Shown here: positions 2,704 through 18,356 of the stretch, piece by piece
Layout: the number at the start of each line of letters is the position of its first letter
Position numbering within the stretch: position 1 is the first letter of the stretch
IMG/VR virus record: IMGVR_UViG_2778261247_000008
Strand: one strand, 5' to 3'
DNA length: 21,832 bases
Source: a virus
Taxonomy: Duplodnaviria > Heunggongvirae > Uroviricota > Caudoviricetes
Notes under the pieces: generated by a model
Databases searched by the model: none
The model's input: the letters and a program-made list of their open reading frames with translations, nothing else
Told to the model about the DNA's origin: nothing
Translations under genes and position numbers: made by a program

Positions 2704-3015
2704 TTATGCTACAGAGGAACAAGCTGGCGGGTAATTCAGCGTAGTGAATACCGGCATCTCCATCTTGTATGCGTAATGATACTCAGCAGTTGCTCCAGCA
2801 GACGCTTTCCAGCCAGGAAGCATCAAAATAGCATCAGCACAACGAAGCATTGCAAAGCAAATATCCATGTATTCACGTTGTGTCAGACCATTAGGCAAAG
2901 TGGCTGGATTCAAGACAGAGTGACCATGTCGTGACAAACGATCTGCCTCTTTATTAAAGGCGTCACGATTAAAGTTCTCATATCCAGTCATTGGCCCGGC
3001 AATATAAATTTTCAT
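2704..3015 (-). CDS. DUF4406-like protein (nucleoside 2-deoxyribosyltransferase-like fold)
   Basis: 103-aa ORF MKIYIAGPMTGYENFNRDAFNKEADRLSRHGHSVLNPATL...AILMLPGWKASAGATAEY..MPVF, matching the recalled DUF4406 pattern (MKIY.AGP.TG ... V.NP ... LPGW..S.GA). Confidence 0.6.
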   Translation of the reverse strand: MKIYIAGPMTGYENFNRDAFNKEADRLSRHGHSVLNPATLPNGLTQREYMDICFAMLRCADAILMLPGWKASAGATAEYHYAYKMEMPVFTTLNYPPACSSVA

Positions 3016-4290: not shown

Positions 4291-4385
4291 ATCTCTTACC
4301 TCGCAATAGTTGCTGAGGTTTCGGCTTGGAAACTATACGGCGAGAAATAACCCCATCAAAAACGGCAGGGGAATATATTCTTCAG

Positions 4386-5507
4386 TTACTCAAATAACTT
4401 TTTCACTTCATCAACTGTCTGAAGATAACGTTCACCCTCAATCTCAATACCGATTGCCTGACGACCTAACTTCAGCGCGGCTTTAATAGTAGAGCCTGAT
4501 CCCATAAAGAAATCGGCAACGATATCTCCGGGGCGGGAACTACTTTTTATAATATGTTCCATCATCGCTGCAGGTTTTTCACATGGGTGCTTGCCAGGAT
4601 AATATTGCACAGGAGGAAACTCCCATACATCGGTATAAGGTACATCAGCAGTAACATGAAATGGGCGGCGCAAATTTTCATACTGAGCCTTCAAATCATC
4701 ATACTGCTTCTTTACTTCCTCATAACGCAATTTCAGATCGCTATAACGCTTTTCATGTTCTGAATAATCAACATTAAAAGGATATGGACACGGGACACCG
4801 AGTGAATCTGCCTTCCTGCGAAATAATTCGCATAGTTTATTAAAATCACTTAATGATGGAAGCCGCCACTGCGAATAAGAAAACCAGTGCGAACACATCT
4901 GCTTTCCTGTTGCTGAATTAATGTCTGCGGCTGATATATCTAACTGACGGCGAGCCAGCGAAAAAGCATCAATTAGTGGAGAAAAAATATTTTTTCTTAA
5001 ATCTGCACATTTTGAAGCATAACCTGACTGACCTTTAGCATAACCTGACGCGCCGTAATGCTCTGCAAATAATATTCTTTCAGTGGCAGGAAAATAAGCC
5101 CTTAAACTTTCTTTATGACAACCGCGCCACATACCACTGGGTTTAGCCCAAATGATATGGTTCAGAACATTGAAACGGTCGCGAGTTAATAATTCAATTT
5201 TTGACGCAAGGCGAGAGCCGGTAAACATATACAGGCTGCCATTAGGGGCCAATATCCGCCAAAATTCTGCCAAAAATTCATCAATCCACCCCAAAAAGTC
5301 AGCATCGCTATCCCACTGGTTATCCCATGCGTTAGCCTTTACGCCGAAGTATGGTGGGTCTGTTGCAATCAAATTGACCGAGTTATCAGGGATGGTTTTG
5401 ATAAATTGCAGAGAATCTGCGCAAACGAGTTGCGCGCCATGAATATTAGTGGTTTTGAACATAGCTATTATTTTTTTGCCTGGGTAAGCTAACCCGGCGA
5501 TGCGCAT
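4386..5507 (-). CDS. orphan DNA methyltransferase (beta-class N6-adenine/N4-cytosine, DPPY motif)
   Basis: Motif IV ATDPPYF near the N-terminus, AdoMet motif I DFFMGSGST near the C-terminus, coiled-coil middle. No adjacent restriction endonuclease gene. True start may be the internal ATG at 5460..5462 (MFKTTNIHG...). Confidence 0.85.
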   Translation of the reverse strand: MRIAGLAYPGKKIIAMFKTTNIHGAQLVCADSLQFIKTIPDNSVNLIATDPPYFGVKANAWDNQWDSDADFLGWIDEFLAEFWRILAPNGSLYMFTGSRLASKIELLTRDRFNVLNHIIWAKPSGMWRGCHKESLRAYFPATERILFAEHYGASGYAKGQSGYASKCADLRKNIFSPLIDAFSLARRQLDISAADINSATGKQMCSHWFSYSQWRLPSLSDFNKLCELFRRKADSLGVPCPYPFNVDYSEHEKRYSDLKLRYEEVKKQYDDLKAQYENLRRPFHVTADVPYTDVWEFPPVQYYPGKHPCEKPAAMMEHIIKSSSRPGDIVADFFMGSGSTIKAALKLGRQAIGIEIEGERYLQTVDEVKKLFE

Positions 5508-5554
5508 CGCGGGTGGGCTTTAGGTTCAGCCTATAGCTCTGGCATGGGTTGACC

Positions 5555-5580
5555 GCAGGACAAGCTGCAACTTGTCCTGC
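5555..5580. promoter_or_regulatory. perfect 10-bp stem / 6-nt loop hairpin in the methylase leader
   Basis: GCAGGACAAG-CTGCAA-CTTGTCCTGC, about 50-75 nt upstream of the methylase start. Confidence 0.4.
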
Positions 5581-5597
5581 GCCCACTTTTCAGGCAC

Positions 5598-5620
5598 AAA
5601 AAAACCGCCATAAAGGCGGC
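5598..5620 (-). terminator. intrinsic terminator candidate (tR'-like) upstream of the methylase-lysis operon
   Basis: Minus strand: GCCGCC-TTTAT-GGCGG followed by TTTTTTT. Confidence 0.45.
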
Positions 5621-5658
5621 TTGTTGGCTGTTGGGTACAAAAAACCCAACTTAACAAA

Positions 5659-5687
5659 ACAATAACTAAAAACCGTAATTTTGCCAA
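5659..5687 (-). promoter_or_regulatory. candidate sigma70 promoter (possible late promoter)
   Basis: Minus strand TTGGCA-17 nt-TATTGT, followed by hairpin GTTGGGT..ACCCAAC and the terminator above; layout resembles lambdoid pR'-tR'. Confidence 0.3.
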
Positions 5688-5704
5688 GCTTTTTCGTTTT
5701 TGTG

Positions 5705-5726
5705 CTGTGCGACCACGGTCGCACAG
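5705..5726. other. sopC-like palindrome (candidate centromere site), immediately upstream of the candidate late promoter
   Basis: CTGTGCGACC-AC-GGTCGCACAG, 10-bp perfect arms. Confidence 0.55.
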
Positions 5727-5729
5727 TTT

Positions 5730-5957
5730 TTAGAAAGTTGCCTGCTTATATTCATCGGTCAAAGAATATCGACCAGACCCGCTACGCTTTGCAACCCCAA
5801 AACAGATCATCTGTTCGATGATAAATTCAACGGCAGCTTGACTCAAAAAACAGGCTTCGCTTAACTCTTTCAGGGAAATGCGTGGGTATCCACGCATAAC
5901 ACATTCCACACTCAGGGCCGCTTCAGTCATATTTCCACGAATTTCATTAATATTCAT
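5730..5957 (-). CDS. hypothetical protein (75 aa)
   Basis: ORF MNINEIRGNMTEAALSVECVMRGYPRISLKELSEACFLSQAAVEFIIEQ...; codirectional with the late block. Confidence 0.4.
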   Translation of the reverse strand: MNINEIRGNMTEAALSVECVMRGYPRISLKELSEACFLSQAAVEFIIEQMICFGVAKRSGSGRYSLTDEYKQATF

Positions 5958-6357: not shown

Positions 6358-6669
6358 ATGTTTAACGTGATAACCCACCCTGCAGCACTGGATGAACTGC
6401 TTGAACTACCAGATGATTTGCGAGGTCGCATGACCAGATTAATTGAGCGACTGGAGAAGGAAGGCAACAAACTGAAGATGCCCCATAGCCGTGTAATAGG
6501 TGGAGGGCTTTTTGAACTACGAGTAGGGGATAAAAACATCGCAAGAACGCTGTACGCCTACGCGACTGGTAACGAAATTTATCTATTGCATGCATTTGTA
6601 AAAAAGACACAGAAAACACCGGTGAAGGCTATCGAAATCGCCAGAACTCGCCTGAAGGAGATGAACTGA
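6358..6669 (+). CDS. higB: type II toxin, RelE/HigB superfamily (Gp49-like)
   Basis: 103 aa; GGAGG RBS; toxin-first order with a 1-nt overlap (TGATG) to a downstream XRE-HTH gene. Sequence MFNVITHPAALDELLELPDDLRGRMTRLIERLEKEGNKL... fits the Gp49/HigB-like family as recalled. Confidence 0.7.
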   Translation: MFNVITHPAALDELLELPDDLRGRMTRLIERLEKEGNKLKMPHSRVIGGGLFELRVGDKNIARTLYAYATGNEIYLLHAFVKKTQKTPVKAIEIARTRLKEMN

Positions 6670-10079: not shown

Positions 10080-10380
10080 TTTCTTGTGCGACCACGGTCG
10101 CACCCTCTCTGATTTCCAAGTAACGCTTAATCCAAAGATTTTCTATATGCTTATTACCTGGCTGATTTGATAAATACCAATCGGCAATTACAGACTGCTT
10201 ATTACTATCTGGTCGTGTCCTGTAACCACAAGTTGGACACCAGATAACATATTCATTTCTTACCCCCGAATACCTTAATTCCGGCTTCGACGGTTTCCTG
10301 AACATAACTTGTTTACAAAGGCAGAATGGCACTTCCTGCCCGATGGCGTTTGATGATTTCACTGCGCTTCTCCGCCGCAT
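10060..10380 (-). CDS. hypothetical Cys-containing small protein (zinc-ribbon-like), boundaries uncertain
   Basis: FCLC...(22)...CPTCG pattern; the C-terminal tail is read through the palindrome and may not be real. Confidence 0.3.
   Translation of the reverse strand: MRRRSAVKSSNAIGQEVPFCLCKQVMFRKPSKPELRYSGVRNEYVIWCPTCGYRTRPDSNKQSVIADWYLSNQPGNKHIENLWIKRYLEIREGATVVAQENENNAI
10085..10102. other. sopC-like palindrome (candidate centromere site)
   Basis: GTGCGACC-AC-GGTCGCAC, 8-bp perfect arms. Confidence 0.5.
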
Positions 10381-11023
10381 TTAATAATGCAGTTCGATTT
10401 AAGCTCAGACATCGCGACTTAATTAAAAGCCAGCGTTCTTTATAATCTTGTCTCCAGCTATCAATAGATATATTCAGTAGAAAACTCAGCTGCCTGTCCT
10501 GTTCTCTATCATCAACTGCCTCAGCACACGTAAGTTCTGACTTAACCTGCTGTGCCGCGTAATAAATCAATTTTCTCATGGCTTTTTTCGTGGAGGCCTT
10601 CATTTTTTTAAACCCGCCACCCGAATGCGCAACCAGAAAATCAAGCCATAACCACTGACAAACAATCACATCATTGTTGTAGTTAGGCTTGCATCCGTAG
10701 CAATAATAAAGCCAGGCTGATTCCTCGTTATTCAACTGACCAATAGCCCTGCGCCAGCTGGCGCTCTGAAAATCAATATCAGTGAGCAACATTGATGATT
10801 GTTTAAATGTTTTGCCCTGGTGGAATCTAACCGGCTCAGCAGGAACAGACACTTCGTATGAGTTATCATCACCTACACTGATTGACCGGACTGGTTTATT
10901 GTTAAAGCGTCCTGATCTGCCTAGACGCATCTGCTCAAGCTGGACCTCTAGGATGCCACGCTGGCGATAATGAATATCAGCCAATGCCGTGGAGACGCAG
11001 CTGCGTATATACTCAAGCTCCAC
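10313..11023 (-). CDS. hypothetical protein (236 aa) immediately downstream of cro; possible Q-like late regulator by position only
   Basis: In N15-type phages the gene after cro is, as I recall, the late antiterminator. Contains CYGC; no family match could be confirmed from sequence. Confidence 0.35.
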   Translation of the reverse strand: MELEYIRSCVSTALADIHYRQRGILEVQLEQMRLGRSGRFNNKPVRSISVGDDNSYEVSVPAEPVRFHQGKTFKQSSMLLTDIDFQSASWRRAIGQLNNEESAWLYYCYGCKPNYNNDVIVCQWLWLDFLVAHSGGGFKKMKASTKKAMRKLIYYAAQQVKSELTCAEAVDDREQDRQLSFLLNISIDSWRQDYKERWLLIKSRCLSLNRTALLNAAEKRSEIIKRHRAGSAILPL

Positions 11024-12167: not shown

Positions 12168-15100
12168 ATGACATTAAACGATTTCTATGCGGATCGCTTT
12201 GGCAGCGATCCGTTCTCGCTAATTGAAGCAGCACGGGATGAACTAACCGAGCTGGCACAGATGGCTGGTATCAACTGGTCTGCCTGTTCCGACAACATCC
12301 AACTCAACCCTCGCGGGGGTGTTGAGCGTTACTCTTCATACAATAAAACATCTCCAGAAGCTCTCGAAAAGAGCCTCAAAGGACGCGTAGAAATTTACTC
12401 CCGGCTGGAACACAGCAAAGGGATTGATTACCCGTTCATTAACTTCGTCCATAAAGGCAGCGATGCTGGCTCATGGAGCGGTTTCTCCTTCCTGTTTTCT
12501 GAATATCGCCGTGAGCAACAACGGAATAATGCGACCGTGGTCGCACAACCGGAAGAAGAACGGGCAAGAATAGAACGTCAGGCCGAAGCACGTCGTCGCC
12601 GTGAAGAACAAAAACGAATTAATGACCTGAAAAACAACCAAATGGACCATGAACGTTTGCTGGGATGGCTGGCATTCCACAGCGCGTGGGAACATGCTCC
12701 TGCAGAAGACGGCTCATGGCCATATGCGATTAAAAAAGGTATTCGTGACGTTTTTAATTCGTGTGATGTGCGTCGCGTGACCAGTCACGACAGCGCAAAA
12801 TGGAGCAGGGGGCCAACCACGTATATGGCTATCCCTCTGGCTCACCTGGACGGTCGTTACGATGGTCGTATTGTGGGTTGGCAGCGAATCGACAAACAAG
12901 GTGGAAAATACCAGACCAGCGCCGTAACCAGCGGCGATTTCGTCGGTGCCTGCTTTGTTATCGGTGAGCTAAAAGGGGCGCAAAACATCGCTGTTACAGA
13001 AGGTTTTGCTACTGGTGCATCCATCTGGCTTGCCACGAAAAAAGATAAACGCTTTGACGCTGTGGTTGTCGCTGTATCCGCTAATAACATGGTTCATGTT
13101 GTGGAACAACTGGTAAACATGTACCCGGCGGCAAAAATCACCTGCGCACTGGATAATGACCGGAAATCAGCCACAGAAGGAAAAGGGAATACCGGCCTGC
13201 GGACTGGCTATGAAATCTTATCGAAATTCAACGATGTCCGCTGCGTCTATCCAACTTTTGAAGACGATCCGCAAATGGAGTGCAGTGACTTCAACGACCT
13301 GCACAAACTGCGTGGACTTCGTGAAACAGCACGTCAACTGTTTGCAACTGCAAACCGCCTGAAAACCGGCACTGATTTGCTATCTCTGACGCTCAACCGC
13401 CTGAAGACAATTAAGCGGGATAACCGTCGTACTTTTGCCAAAGAGCTGCTGAGAGCGGTGGATATTGGCATGCTAACCTGTCCGGTTCCTAACAGTCCGT
13501 CAGACTTATTTAACATGTTCTGCATCGTTCTGCGTGAAATGGGGCTGGAAAATATCTATCGCGCTACGGTAAAAGACCACATTGCCCGTCGCCTGAATAA
13601 AAAGTGCCGTATTGCCCAGGCTCCGCGCTCATTCAGCGAACGCATAACTGATCCCAATAAACGTCCTCAACATATCACCTATAAGCGTTTTGAAACTTCG
13701 GTAATGACCGATGACGTCCTGAAGTATGTGCAATCACTACAGGGGATAGTCATCGTTCGTGCTGGTATGGGTTCCGGCAAATCTACTGGATTGTTACGAC
13801 CTTTAATGCATAGCTCAGAACGTGGTATCTCTGTTGCTCACCGTGTTTCCCTTATTGGTGGCCTGTGGGAAATGATGACAGAAGGAAAAGGTGTAAAAGC
13901 CGATATCCTGCACTATCAGGACCCTGGCTATCAGGAAATGGCTCCATACGCCAGTAAACTGACCATCTGCATAAACTCGATTGTTAAAAACTGCTGGCAA
14001 CCGTTGATGCGCCAGCACGACTATTTTGGCTTTGACGAGGCCACGCAAGGGCTACGTGCCGTTCTTTCCGGTCGGGCTATGGAAAACCCGGTGGCTGTAT
14101 TCAATACGTTAATCGACGCGCTGGCCAGAACGGAACAACACCCAATAATGGTGGATGCTGATGCGAACGATCTGCTGGTTGACCTGGCTGAACTGGCTAT
14201 GAAACGCCGTGAAGAACTAGGTTTACCGGCATGGCTGCAGATCCACGTAATTGAATTACCTGTTGATGTTCGCAACCGCGAAACAGGTGAGCCAATCCGG
14301 GTTTTTTATACAGAAAAAGATCGCATTATGACCGAGGTGGTGAAAGCTGTATCGGATGGCGAAAAAATCATGTTGGCCACCGACAGCTCCACCTTTGCAG
14401 AAGATGTGACAGCCACCCTGAGAATGCATTTTCCTGGTAAGAAATTTCTGTGTGTAAACCAGAAAAACAAACCAGAGCCAGAAGTTGAAGCATTTACCAA
14501 TCAACCGAAAAAGATGGTCAAAAAATACGACGGCCTGATTTATAGCCCGTCTATTTCATCCGGTGTGTCGATTGAGCAAAAACATTTTGACCGTCATTTC
14601 GGCATGTTCTGTGGTGAAGTTGTACCCAGCGACGCAGTGCAAATGCTACGCCGCGACCGTACAGCAAAAGAATTTATTATCGGCTTTGATAAAGCTCGCG
14701 CAAAACGTGAAACTGACCCGCAAAAAATAGAACGAGCATTCGCCCAGGCATTGCTTGCTACCGCAGGCATGAACGGTGAACTGACGGATGTCGTTTTCGA
14801 TGGCGACCGTATATCAATGGGGGTGGCCAATACCGACTTTACCAGGATGAAAATTAAAGCAGCCGCAATTGAAGCGTCTGCGCGTAACGACTACGCCAGC
14901 AACATGATCTGCATCATGCACAGCGACGGTTATAAGGTATCGCCGCTGGCCACCGATTATGCTGCGAATGATATCGGTAAAGATCTGCGTAAAGAAGCGC
15001 GGGATATTGTGTGGGAACAGACACTGGATCTGCATCTCAATACAGAAACTCCACAAGAATCAGAGCGTGAAGAACTGCTAAAAAAACGCGCGCTGACGCT

Positions 15101-16163
15101 TGAAGAACAAGCAAAACTTGTCCGCTGGGATATTGAGAACGAACTGAAACTACCGGTTGAAGAAGGCACGCTGAAATTCTATTTCGATGGTGCTCGAGAC
15201 AAAGTTCGCCGCTATGAAACAATGCTTTTAGATGAGGTAACAGCTCGTCGTTACGACCGGGAAGAAGCAGCCATCAATTTTACCTACGCATACCGTCAGG
15301 CGGGACAGTGGCAATATTTTGTAGTGACCGCGATGACTCGCGAGCAGGCTGATGATGTCTTTAAAACTAAATTCCCTGGAATAATCGACTACAAGGTAAA
15401 AGCTACTCCTACTGTTGAAGTCGGGGCGCGCGGTTTCTATGCGCTTAAATCAGCAACTCTCCGGCAGTACTTTATCGACTGCGGTATCAACCCTGAGACT
15501 ATGACCGGCGAGGCGACTCAGGAGCGTCTCAAATTCGCTCGAGATAACCTCATGACAGCCGAACGCCGTGACCTGTTGAATAACGTTCTGCACATTGGTG
15601 GTTTTATGACGCCAAAAGGGAAGCCTAAAGTGCCGGAAGCGTTGTTTAAAAACATTTGCGACTCTCTTGGCCTTAAAACAGGTAAACGTCGCGGCAGAGA
15701 CGGCGATAAGCGTCCAACCTTGCGTTTTGTTGAGCCTGAATCAGCGGCATTTATGCTGGATATTCTTGTTCAGCGTCAGAAAGATGGCCTAACCCTAAAA
15801 ACGCGTAAAGCCGAGAAGACAGCCATCGAAATGGATCGCGATTTGGATCTCAATATATATATGGATGATAAAACGCGATCCACAAACGAGCAGGTTCAAA
15901 ACGCCCCTCATTCAGTAATTTCTGAGGCTTTGGCCGTATTGCCGGTGGCTGTTCCTGAGTCCTGGGCGATGAGTGCGCTTTCCGGTGAGGAGCTGGCCAC
16001 TATGTCATCATGGTCATCAGCCAGCATAGCTATGACGTTTGCATCTCTGTATCTCACAGAGTTCATGGATCACTTGTCCAGCAATGAATTGCGGCGGTTA
16101 CGAGAATACATTACCGGGAATAGCTCATGCAGCTACGAAGAGCAGGGCGCTTTCTATGGGTAA
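12168..16163 (+). CDS. repA: replication protein RepA, multidomain primase-helicase (N15 RepA-like)
   Basis: Single 1331-aa ORF with Walker A VRAGMGSGKSTGLL in the central region; size and position next to cB match N15 RepA (about 1324 aa, as recalled). Confidence 0.85.
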   Translation: MTLNDFYADRFGSDPFSLIEAARDELTELAQMAGINWSACSDNIQLNPRGGVERYSSYNKTSPEALEKSLKGRVEIYSRLEHSKGIDYPFINFVHKGSDAGSWSGFSFLFSEYRREQQRNNATVVAQPEEERARIERQAEARRRREEQKRINDLKNNQMDHERLLGWLAFHSAWEHAPAEDGSWPYAIKKGIRDVFNSCDVRRVTSHDSAKWSRGPTTYMAIPLAHLDGRYDGRIVGWQRIDKQGGKYQTSAVTSGDFVGACFVIGELKGAQNIAVTEGFATGASIWLATKKDKRFDAVVVAVSANNMVHVVEQLVNMYPAAKITCALDNDRKSATEGKGNTGLRTGYEILSKFNDVRCVYPTFEDDPQMECSDFNDLHKLRGLRETARQLFATANRLKTGTDLLSLTLNRLKTIKRDNRRTFAKELLRAVDIGMLTCPVPNSPSDLFNMFCIVLREMGLENIYRATVKDHIARRLNKKCRIAQAPRSFSERITDPNKRPQHITYKRFETSVMTDDVLKYVQSLQGIVIVRAGMGSGKSTGLLRPLMHSSERGISVAHRVSLIGGLWEMMTEGKGVKADILHYQDPGYQEMAPYASKLTICINSIVKNCWQPLMRQHDYFGFDEATQGLRAVLSGRAMENPVAVFNTLIDALARTEQHPIMVDADANDLLVDLAELAMKRREELGLPAWLQIHVIELPVDVRNRETGEPIRVFYTEKDRIMTEVVKAVSDGEKIMLATDSSTFAEDVTATLRMHFPGKKFLCVNQKNKPEPEVEAFTNQPKKMVKKYDGLIYSPSISSGVSIEQKHFDRHFGMFCGEVVPSDAVQMLRRDRTAKEFIIGFDKARAKRETDPQKIERAFAQALLATAGMNGELTDVVFDGDRISMGVANTDFTRMKIKAAAIEASARNDYASNMICIMHSDGYKVSPLATDYAANDIGKDLRKEARDIVWEQTLDLHLNTETPQESEREELLKKRALTLEEQAKLVRWDIENELKLPVEEGTLKFYFDGARDKVRRYETMLLDEVTARRYDREEAAINFTYAYRQAGQWQYFVVTAMTREQADDVFKTKFPGIIDYKVKATPTVEVGARGFYALKSATLRQYFIDCGINPETMTGEATQERLKFARDNLMTAERRDLLNNVLHIGGFMTPKGKPKVPEALFKNICDSLGLKTGKRRGRDGDKRPTLRFVEPESAAFMLDILVQRQKDGLTLKTRKAEKTAIEMDRDLDLNIYMDDKTRSTNEQVQNAPHSVISEALAVLPVAVPESWAMSALSGEELATMSSWSSASIAMTFASLYLTEFMDHLSSNELRRLREYITGNSSCSYEEQGAFYG
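12530..12545. other. sopC-like palindrome inside repA, opposite orientation (spacer GT)
   Basis: TGCGACC-GT-GGTCGCA, 7-bp arms; on the coding strand all five sites read GCGACCGUGGUCGC in the mRNA sense. Confidence 0.45.
15833..15881. other. candidate replication origin element inside the 3' part of repA
   Basis: GGATCGCG ... CGCGATCC inverted repeat flanking an AT-rich core (ATTTGGATCTCAATATATATATGGATGATAAAA) with GATC sites; N15 ori is reported inside the 3' region of repA (recalled). Confidence 0.3.
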
Positions 16164-18079: not shown

Positions 18080-18109
18080 TTGACGTGTGCGTCGTTTTGA
18101 CGGTAAAGT
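18080..18109 (+). promoter_or_regulatory. candidate promoter of the ant-operon leader
   Basis: TTGACG, 18-nt spacer, TAAAGT. Confidence 0.3.
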
Positions 18110-18116
18110 TACTCCG

Positions 18117-18190
18117 CTGCGGCAAATTCCGCAGCCGGGCGTGAGAACCCGGATAAACGAAGCGCACAACACGCGCCAGCGTGTTTTTTT
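18117..18190 (+). ncRNA. candidate c4-like small regulatory RNA / attenuator transcript in the ant-operon leader
   Basis: Two stem-loops (CTGCGG-CAAATT-CCGCAG; CCGGG-CGTGAGAA-CCCGG) followed by an intrinsic terminator (AACACGC-GCCA-GCGTGTT plus T-run). Loop GUGAGAA is complementary to UUCUCAC at 18275..18281 in the downstream leader. Confidence 0.35.
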
Positions 18191-18356
18191 GTGTGTATAT
18201 ACCTGCGCATATCCGATTTATGGTGGCTCAGGCGGGGCTGACTTCGGTCAGGCCGGTTTCTTCGTTTGCCGGTATTCTCACCCCCGCTTGGGCTACCACC
18301 ATTCAAGAGCGTGAGAACTCTGGTGGTAGCACGACCAATTAAACGGAGTGCATACC

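Follow-up and report, generated by a model that had tools for sequence, protein, structure and literature searches.

The DNA stretch analysed here, called the window in the following, comprises 21,832 nucleotides (nt) of a virus of the Caudoviricetes (IMG/VR record IMGVR_UViG_2778261247_000008), and the subject of this text is the region on its minus strand that lies in front of a predicted late operon. The operon begins with a DNA methylase gene (4386-5462, minus strand; PF01555, E = 1.3e-46, annotated also in phage YDC107_1) and continues with holin-like, lysozyme and Rz genes, followed by terminase and portal genes, all of them on the minus strand and downstream of the promoter described below (annotation of YDC107_1 and Pfam). 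The methylase starts with the ATG at 5462, which is kept in all relatives, and not at the start of its open reading frame at 5507. Elsewhere the window encodes a replication protein of 1331 amino acids (aa), a 633-aa open reading frame of protelomerase size, a C4-type antisense RNA locus and a Q gene. The segment 5300-6000 is 99.7% identical to the Escherichia phages YDC107_1 and PhiR46_1, which belong to Ravinvirus, the genus of N15. At lower stringency, N15 itself aligns to the control region with 75.8% DNA identity and phiKO2 with about 73%, and further alignments of the segment were obtained with one Enterobacter relative and with other Klebsiella phages. The Yersinia phages PY54 and P840 align over 81 nt only, and in PY54 the sole alignable part of a 561-nt query is 5579-5659, which reaches from the start site through the terminator. 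About 40 relatives in IMG/VR retain the complete layout of the control region. Judged by homology and gene content, the window belongs to an N15-like linear plasmid-phage, and the segment is the ortholog of the intergenic region between gp51 and gp52 of N15 and phiKO2.

The late promoter that the initial annotation had proposed, TTGGCA-17-TATTGT on the minus strand, was also found by a promoter scan, with 9 of 12 matches, the -35 hexamer being located at 5682-5687 and the -10 hexamer at 5659-5664. It is not the scan score that gives weight to this call but the fact that both hexamers align exactly with the -35 and -10 annotated in N15 and phiKO2. In the GenBank record of N15, these two hexamers and a rho-independent terminator are annotated at the homologous place, and in the record of phiKO2 a terminator is annotated together with features named 'putative late promoter' and 'putative plasmid partitioning site', arranged as they are in the window. 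In a three-way alignment of the window with the two phages, the annotated hexamers coincide with those of the window, the -35 being invariant and the -10 reading TATCTT in N15 and TATCGT in phiKO2, and the upstream palindrome, the block TAAGTTGGG, the terminator and the beginning of the leader are all conserved. From the spacing, transcription is predicted to start at A5652.

A second hexamer that resembles a -10 element, TAAGTT, spans positions -1 to +5 of the predicted transcript and is followed by GGG up to +8 (together 5645-5653, minus strand). In -10 elements, the A at the second and the T at the sixth position are the critical ones, and exactly these two are present in almost all of the approximately 40 relatives (pattern TA[AT]G[TC]T), while the -35 and the spacer vary. 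The distance of the hexamer from the -10 is constant in almost all of these relatives as well, with one extra A in the relative L031. A direct comparison with the PR' promoter of phage lambda showed the same placement, as there the -10 TAAATT is followed by six bases and then by AACGAT-GGG at +1 to +9. The lambda element is known from the Roberts laboratory to hold the sigma-containing polymerase at the pause where Q loads (PMC9388147). Because of this common placement and of the conservation in the relatives, TAAGTT with the GGG is a candidate Q-loading element and probably causes a promoter-proximal pause of sigma-containing polymerase. The possibility that TAAGTT is itself the true -10 of the late promoter was considered and rejected, as there is no -35-like hexamer 16-18 bp upstream of it, while TTGGCA-17-TATYNT is conserved.

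The transcript from this promoter would begin with a hairpin of 7 bp and a 7-nt loop (hairpin 1; 5630-5650, minus strand), which was found by an inverted-repeat search and by folding. Its arms GTTGGGT and ACCCAAC lie at 5650-5644 and 5636-5630, one base away from where they had been placed initially. A pairing partner with 5/5 pairs is found at the same place in 25 of 27 distinct relatives, and the seven variants of the 3' arm all stay paired through G-U pairs on the late strand (22 G-U, no A-C), so that hairpin 1 is conserved as an RNA structure of the late strand; it may serve as a stabiliser of the 5' end. It is followed by an intrinsic terminator (5599-5622, minus strand) with an 8-bp stem (5622-5602, 5 G-C pairs) and the predicted run of seven T (5605-5599), which is annotated as a terminator in N15 and phiKO2 and whose stem and T-run are invariant in 23 aligned relatives. 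The predicted 55-nt RNA (5652-5598) folds into precisely these two structures, with -23.3 kcal/mol and a z score of -5.5, and the linker between them (5629-5623 and neighbouring bases) is less conserved than any other part of the module.

The candidate Q-like protein of the initial annotation (10313-11023, minus strand) turned out to be a clear match to PF06323 (E = 4e-85 with a cut-off of 25 bits) and its gene lies upstream of the late promoter at a distance of 4.6 kb. The PF06323 proteins form the Q82 family, which is one of three lambdoid Q antiterminator families that are unrelated to each other and the one whose mechanism was still listed as an open priority in 2022 (PMC9388147). A search of the PDB with the sequence of the window protein found no related solved structure. 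In N15, the protein gp40, annotated as 'late transcription activator' and as 'Q: antiterminator', is 67% identical to it. With the Q gene, an intrinsic terminator ahead of the late genes and the late genes downstream, the window thus contains these elements by which Q cassettes have been defined (PMC9388147).

Directly upstream of the late promoter lies a perfect inverted repeat of 10 + 2 + 10 bp (5705-5726), the centre of which is at -63.5 relative to the predicted start. It had been described as sopC-like from the letters alone, and it equals the centromere site IR3 of N15: IR1-4 are the natural SopB sites of N15, and the IR3 oligonucleotide matches the palindrome of the window (PMC7205306), as does, by alignment, the putative partitioning site of phiKO2. 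The 18-bp core GTGCGACCnnGGTCGCAC is exact at 5707-5724, and with up to two mismatches five copies are present in the window where 0.01 would be expected by chance. These copies, at 2447, 2667, 5707, 10086 and 12529, are dispersed and form no tandem array. The copy at 10086-10103 lies about 210 bp after the Q stop codon and is the positional equivalent of IR2 of N15, in which the core occurs about 180 bp after Q (IR2), 20 bp before the late -35 (IR3) and near the right end (IR4), with a further one-mismatch copy in repA. The window likewise has a one-mismatch palindrome (12529-12546) inside its replication gene (12168-16163), and two perfect ones at 2447-2464 and 2667-2684 bracket a 280-bp gap between the genes 1827-2423 and 2704-3015, where N15 has the single site IR4. 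The sopAB operon lies outside the window, and in the 99.7% identical phage PhiR46_1 there are genes for ParA and for a homolog of SopB (E = 6e-39 with SopB of the F plasmid). N15-type Sop sites are characterised by an 18-bp inverted repeat in dispersed copies and a cognate SopA/SopB operon in the same replicon; the repeats are present in the window and such a gene pair in PhiR46_1, and binding of SopB to the palindrome is predicted.

The placement of this site is conserved. Among 37 distinct N15-type relatives, the centre of the palindrome varies between -62.5 and -64.5, a deviation of no more than 1 bp in either direction, and nine distinct relatives carry a different palindrome (GGGACCnnGGTCCC, of the PY54 type) with its centre at -52.5. 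The site has therefore been replaced together with the partition specificity, and the PY54-type palindrome is still found directly upstream of the -35, displaced by 11 bp or about one helical turn. The conserved placement of non-homologous partition sites lends comparative support to a functional coupling of the site to late expression, in agreement with the title of Ravin, Rech and Lane 2008 (J Bacteriol), according to which 'the Sop system of ... N15 facilitates late gene expression'.

It is thus very likely that the segment controls the late operon of an N15-like linear plasmid-prophage, and the following mechanism can be proposed. The sigma-70 promoter TTGGCA-17 bp-TATTGT would fire near A5652, and the polymerase that still contains sigma would probably pause at TAAGTT and GGG within the first bases of the transcript, as it does at lambda PR'. 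Without the phage antiterminator, transcription should then end at the U7 terminator and yield an RNA of about 54 nt that consists of the 5' hairpin, the linker and the terminator hairpin. With the Q82-family protein, the polymerase would become resistant to termination and proceed into the genes for methylase, holin, endolysin, Rz and packaging. As one of the dispersed centromere sites, the palindrome with its centre at -63.5 would bind SopB and, as reported for N15, help late expression. The resemblance to the lambdoid pR'-tR' arrangement that had been noticed initially is supported by the annotated promoter and terminator of N15 and phiKO2, by the Q82-family protein and by the lysis genes downstream, and also the suggested input of a partition protein into late expression has gained support, from the identity with IR3, the fixed position in the relatives and the N15 title of 2008, although it is an already known idea. 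The interpretation as a late switch with a link to partition is accordingly not new as such, since both have been annotated or studied in N15 and phiKO2.

Several points weigh against this interpretation or limit it. The promoter match taken by itself (9 of 12) is at chance level, with 8 sites of that strength in 2.7 kb where 4.6 +/- 2.1 are expected. In the canonical cassette, PR' is found directly downstream of Q, whereas here 4.6 kb and about a dozen genes, including a pair on the opposite strand, separate the two, and in N15 the promoter does not follow Q directly either. Four lambdoid phages with Q82-family proteins have different promoter-proximal sequences that lack TAAGTTGGG, and a late-promoter motif common to the N15 group and these four phages was sought and not found. 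Odd for a sequence-specific Q site is that Q of PY54 is only 30% identical to that of the window, yet the promoter-proximal block is the same, and because of these two observations the Q-binding element cannot be named. In the divergent relatives L010 and L043, no palindrome is found closer than about 80 bp to the start site. All functions in the window, finally, are assigned by homology and sequence; the N15 study of 2008 reportedly involved antitermination by Q and those IR sites that are close to Q and to the late promoter.

The absence of a nearby site in L010 and L043 would also suit the explanation that the palindrome is only a centromere without any transcriptional effect, which came to lie beside the late promoter because non-coding DNA is scarce. 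Other copies are indeed found in unrelated places, namely inside repA, after Q and flanking an intergenic gap, but this explanation is unlikely, as it leaves the position that is constant within 1 bp in 37 distinct relatives without a reason, and likewise the PY54-type palindrome that again lies immediately upstream of the -35 with a shift of 11 bp, and the title of the 2008 article asserts an effect on late expression. A different role could also be considered for the short terminated RNA, which might act in trans as a regulatory RNA in lysogens, like StxS from the PR' promoter of a Shiga-toxin phage. StxS is a short PR' transcript of a lambdoid prophage that acts as an Hfq-type small RNA (PMC7547250), and the predicted RNA of the window has a hairpin at its 5' end, a linker that is single-stranded and a U7 terminator. 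The linker, however, varies more than any other part of the module and so offers no conserved seed, and the only resemblance to an Rfam family, that to AgrB, is generic and stays below threshold (27 bits, with a gathering score of 40), which makes a trans-acting RNA a quite improbable addition to the switch.

Between the terminator and the methylase ATG, 135 nt are conserved and structured, and here the initial annotation had listed a perfect 10-bp hairpin on the minus strand. The hairpin is present, with 11 Watson-Crick pairs, a 6-nt loop and arms at 5554-5567 and 5568-5581, but wobble pairs and covariation favour the plus strand, and it is probably not part of the late switch but a helix, P2, of a separate conserved structure on the opposite strand. 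This structure is an element of 97 nt (5494-5590, plus strand), in which a hairpin, Hx1, is followed by a helix P1 that closes a three-way junction with P3 and P2 and by a run of four U. Across the relatives, it ends in 3-6 U, and the late terminator, read in reverse, follows 8-10 nt later. Upstream, 6-7 nt before Hx1, lies an invariant TAAGCT (5485-5490, plus strand; TA[AG][AG]CT in the relatives), a weak candidate for the -10 of a plus-strand promoter. Throughout the relatives it is the structured element that is found together with the late promoter and the methylase, and at least 8 further members had the same genomic context. The pattern TTTTTRTGCCT-N-TGGGCGC was also tried as a family probe in genome contigs, and it proved too loose, as among the at least 120 matches listed two were real members and nearly all others chance.

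The assignment to the plus strand rests on covariation and on the wobble pairs. A covariance model, R1, that was built from Klebsiella/Yersinia-type relatives only matches every E. coli-type relative over its full length on the plus strand (in the window with 39 bits and an E value of about 1e-6) and gives only weak partial matches on the opposite strand; a search of lambdoid Q82-family phages with R1 gave no match. As an alignment by MAFFT with RNAalifold of the whole family misaligned the two subfamilies and yielded a poor consensus, the covariance-model alignment was used instead. In it, 93.3% of the cells are paired, compared with 77.8% after shuffling and 36-45% with slid partners, percentages that are somewhat inflated by the fit of the alignment to R1, and 26 of the 33 pairs have changed on both sides. 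P2 alone is 99.6% paired, with compensated changes in 9 of its 11 pairs. On the plus strand 64 wobble pairs were counted, and on the minus strand 14; for P2 the counts are 24 and 0. Hairpin 1, at a distance of just 60 nt, has the opposite wobble polarity, that of the late strand, and serves as an internal control. The plus strand also folds better than the late strand, by 5-26 kcal/mol, in all seven of seven diverse relatives, and in both subfamilies the consensus energy is lower for the plus strand (-55.3 against -41.7 kcal/mol and -47.9 against -32.0 kcal/mol), while the z scores in the window are -5.2 for the plus and -4.2 for the minus strand.

A structure that is conserved with covariation on one strand is what is expected of a cis-antisense small RNA, and this is the leading reading of the element, although it is held tentatively and falls somewhat short of an even chance. 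Such an RNA would start a few bases after TA[AG][AG]CT, have its end either in the U-run behind P1 or at the shared bidirectional terminator, and silence the methylase-lysis operon in the prophage, either by pairing with late transcripts that have read through or by convergent transcription, and it would thus add a layer to the late switch without replacing it. The invariance of T-A-x-x-C-T at a fixed distance from Hx1, despite different local structures in the two subfamilies, is in line with a promoter, and the Klebsiella/Yersinia/L010-type relatives have TGnTAGGCT, the form of an extended -10, at this place, but a canonical TGn spacing is missing from the E. coli-type relatives. The scan, moreover, called no promoter and no terminator at the element and found no acceptable -35, and the U-run after P1 has just 3-6 nt. 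A search of Rfam 15 with both strands of 5350-5800 gave no gathering-level match (AgrB was again the best, with 27.3 bits against 40), no description of the element was found in a literature search, and there is no conserved open frame among the relatives that would point to a protein gene on the plus strand. The alternatives to an antisense RNA are a structure in the leader of the late mRNA and one in single-stranded DNA. In the former case, the structured region between the terminator and the methylase would act within the late mRNA as a 5' stabiliser, as an RNase III site or in the translational control of the methylase, which would fit with its constant location in the late leader next to the methylase start. 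The minus strand does fold significantly (z = -4.2), and P1, most of P2 and Hx1 consist of Watson-Crick pairs and hence exist on both strands. On the late strand, however, 11 of the 18 distinct P2 variants would have at least one A-C mismatch, with a G-U pair in the stem there in none, and P3 of the E. coli-type relatives needs two G-U pairs that would be A-C on that strand; together with the less favourable consensus energies, this makes a function within the late mRNA improbable. If the antisense reading is followed further, it is possible, with still a little more reserve, that N15-like phage-plasmids carry an undescribed, structured cis-antisense RNA of about 95-130 nt, encoded exactly opposite the leader that is crossed by Q-modified polymerase. 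This RNA would converge on the late promoter across the shared bidirectional terminator and form a second lock on the methylase-lysis operon, a lock that would open once antiterminated transcription passes over the promoter of the RNA.

Some observations concern individual relatives and neighbouring genes. In L052 (IMGVR_UViG_3300036846_000707, about 6370-6600), unrelated DNA replaces the sequence upstream of the 3' arm of the terminator, and the late promoter, hairpin 1 and the palindrome are absent, the plus-strand element and the methylase start being intact. L010 and L043 keep the promoter-proximal block, the terminator and the plus-strand element, and in L010 a GTGGGACCGTGGTCCCAC palindrome lies further upstream, at roughly 110-120 bp by manual count. 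The gene on the other side of the control region, gp51 (5730-5957, minus strand, 75 aa), stops 3 bp short of the palindrome, and its matches to winged-helix families are weak (HTH_24 with E = 0.003, below the cut-off; 'PhiH1 repressor-like' in one Klebsiella record). A gene for a small DNA-binding protein right next to the late promoter could be of relevance. A 53-aa open reading frame at 5526-5687 was rejected as a gene, being without a family match and in a frame that is not conserved among the relatives. The ATG that all relatives conserve lies about 236 nt upstream of position 41621, at which gene 52 of N15 is annotated to begin, so that the N15 methylase may be annotated too short. Over codons 4-10 of the methylase gene, within its first 30 nt, the Klebsiella/Yersinia-type relatives, including L003, L005, L009 and L015, conserve a palindrome CACTGT-N7-ACAGTG that neither the window nor N15 has. 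A sigma-70-like TTGATG-16-TATAGT (4332-4359, minus strand) lies between the methylase stop and the start of the holin-like gene, in a gap for which N15 and phiKO2 annotate a terminator. At 18103-18303 (plus strand), Rfam gives gathering-level matches to c4-a1b1 targets, isrK and C4 antisense RNA, which corresponds to the N15-type antisense-RNA control locus of the antirepressor region. In the record of YDC107_1 (CP025712.1, 35300-41500), the protelomerase genes are found in an inverted duplicate, which suggests that the assembly ran through a hairpin telomere.

What is added here to the known late switch of N15 and phiKO2 is the geometry of the pause element, the conserved placement of non-homologous partition sites and the structured element on the plus strand. 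Homology extends the late-gene circuit of N15 to an E. coli phage-plasmid, and coordinates are supplied for signals in a region for which the public records of the closest relatives, YDC107_1 and PhiR46_1, annotate no late-control signals. That the partition site stays beside the late promoter even when its specificity is swapped gives comparative support to a direct role of a segregation protein in phage late transcription. The N15 group further offers a compact and highly conserved promoter-proximal block in which the loading site of a Q82-family protein can be looked for, and the plus-strand element would, should it prove to be a real RNA, add a new regulatory component to a well-studied group of model phages.

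The closest known systems are N15 and phiKO2, with which the window shares the order of palindrome, TTGGCA, -10, TAAGTTGGG/TATGTTGGG, hairpin, terminator and leader, the flanking genes gp51 and methylase, and the dispersed sop sites near Q, in repA and downstream. The window differs from both in its -10 (TATTGT instead of TATCTT or TATCGT) and from N15 in that hairpin 1 is a perfect 7-bp stem rather than one of 6 bp with two G-U pairs, and in having two downstream sop sites (2447 and 2667) rather than IR4 only. Like the PR'-6S RNA-tR'-Q system of lambda, it has a promoter, a -10-like hexamer with GGG at the start and an intrinsic terminator before the late genes, and the phage antiterminator that lambda needs for readthrough (PMC9388147) is presumably needed here as well. 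Unlike in lambda, Q belongs to the Q82 family and is unrelated in sequence to Q-lambda, the terminated RNA would be shorter (about 54 nt, as opposed to 194 nt), Q is encoded at a distance of 4.6 kb and not next to the promoter, the late operon opens with a methylase gene, and the promoter is flanked by a partition site. The Q82-type cassettes of Gifsy-1, PPompW, phiES15 and LLS have a Q of the same family (25-30% identity) and a short promoter-terminator unit before the late genes, but there the promoter follows directly after Q, the -10-like element is found about 10 nt into the transcript (by manual reading), and TAAGTTGGG, the sop palindrome and the plus-strand element are missing. With StxS, the RNA of the window would share that it is made constitutively from a late promoter in the prophage and terminated early (PMC7547250), but it lacks a conserved single-stranded seed, and activity in trans is for the window a candidate reading only. 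As to partition, the palindrome differs from sopC of the F plasmid at one position per half-site (PMC2910045), and the ParB of the near-identical phage is a homolog of SopB; the F plasmid has 10 tandem copies in one locus, whereas the window and N15 have dispersed single copies, one of which abuts the late promoter.

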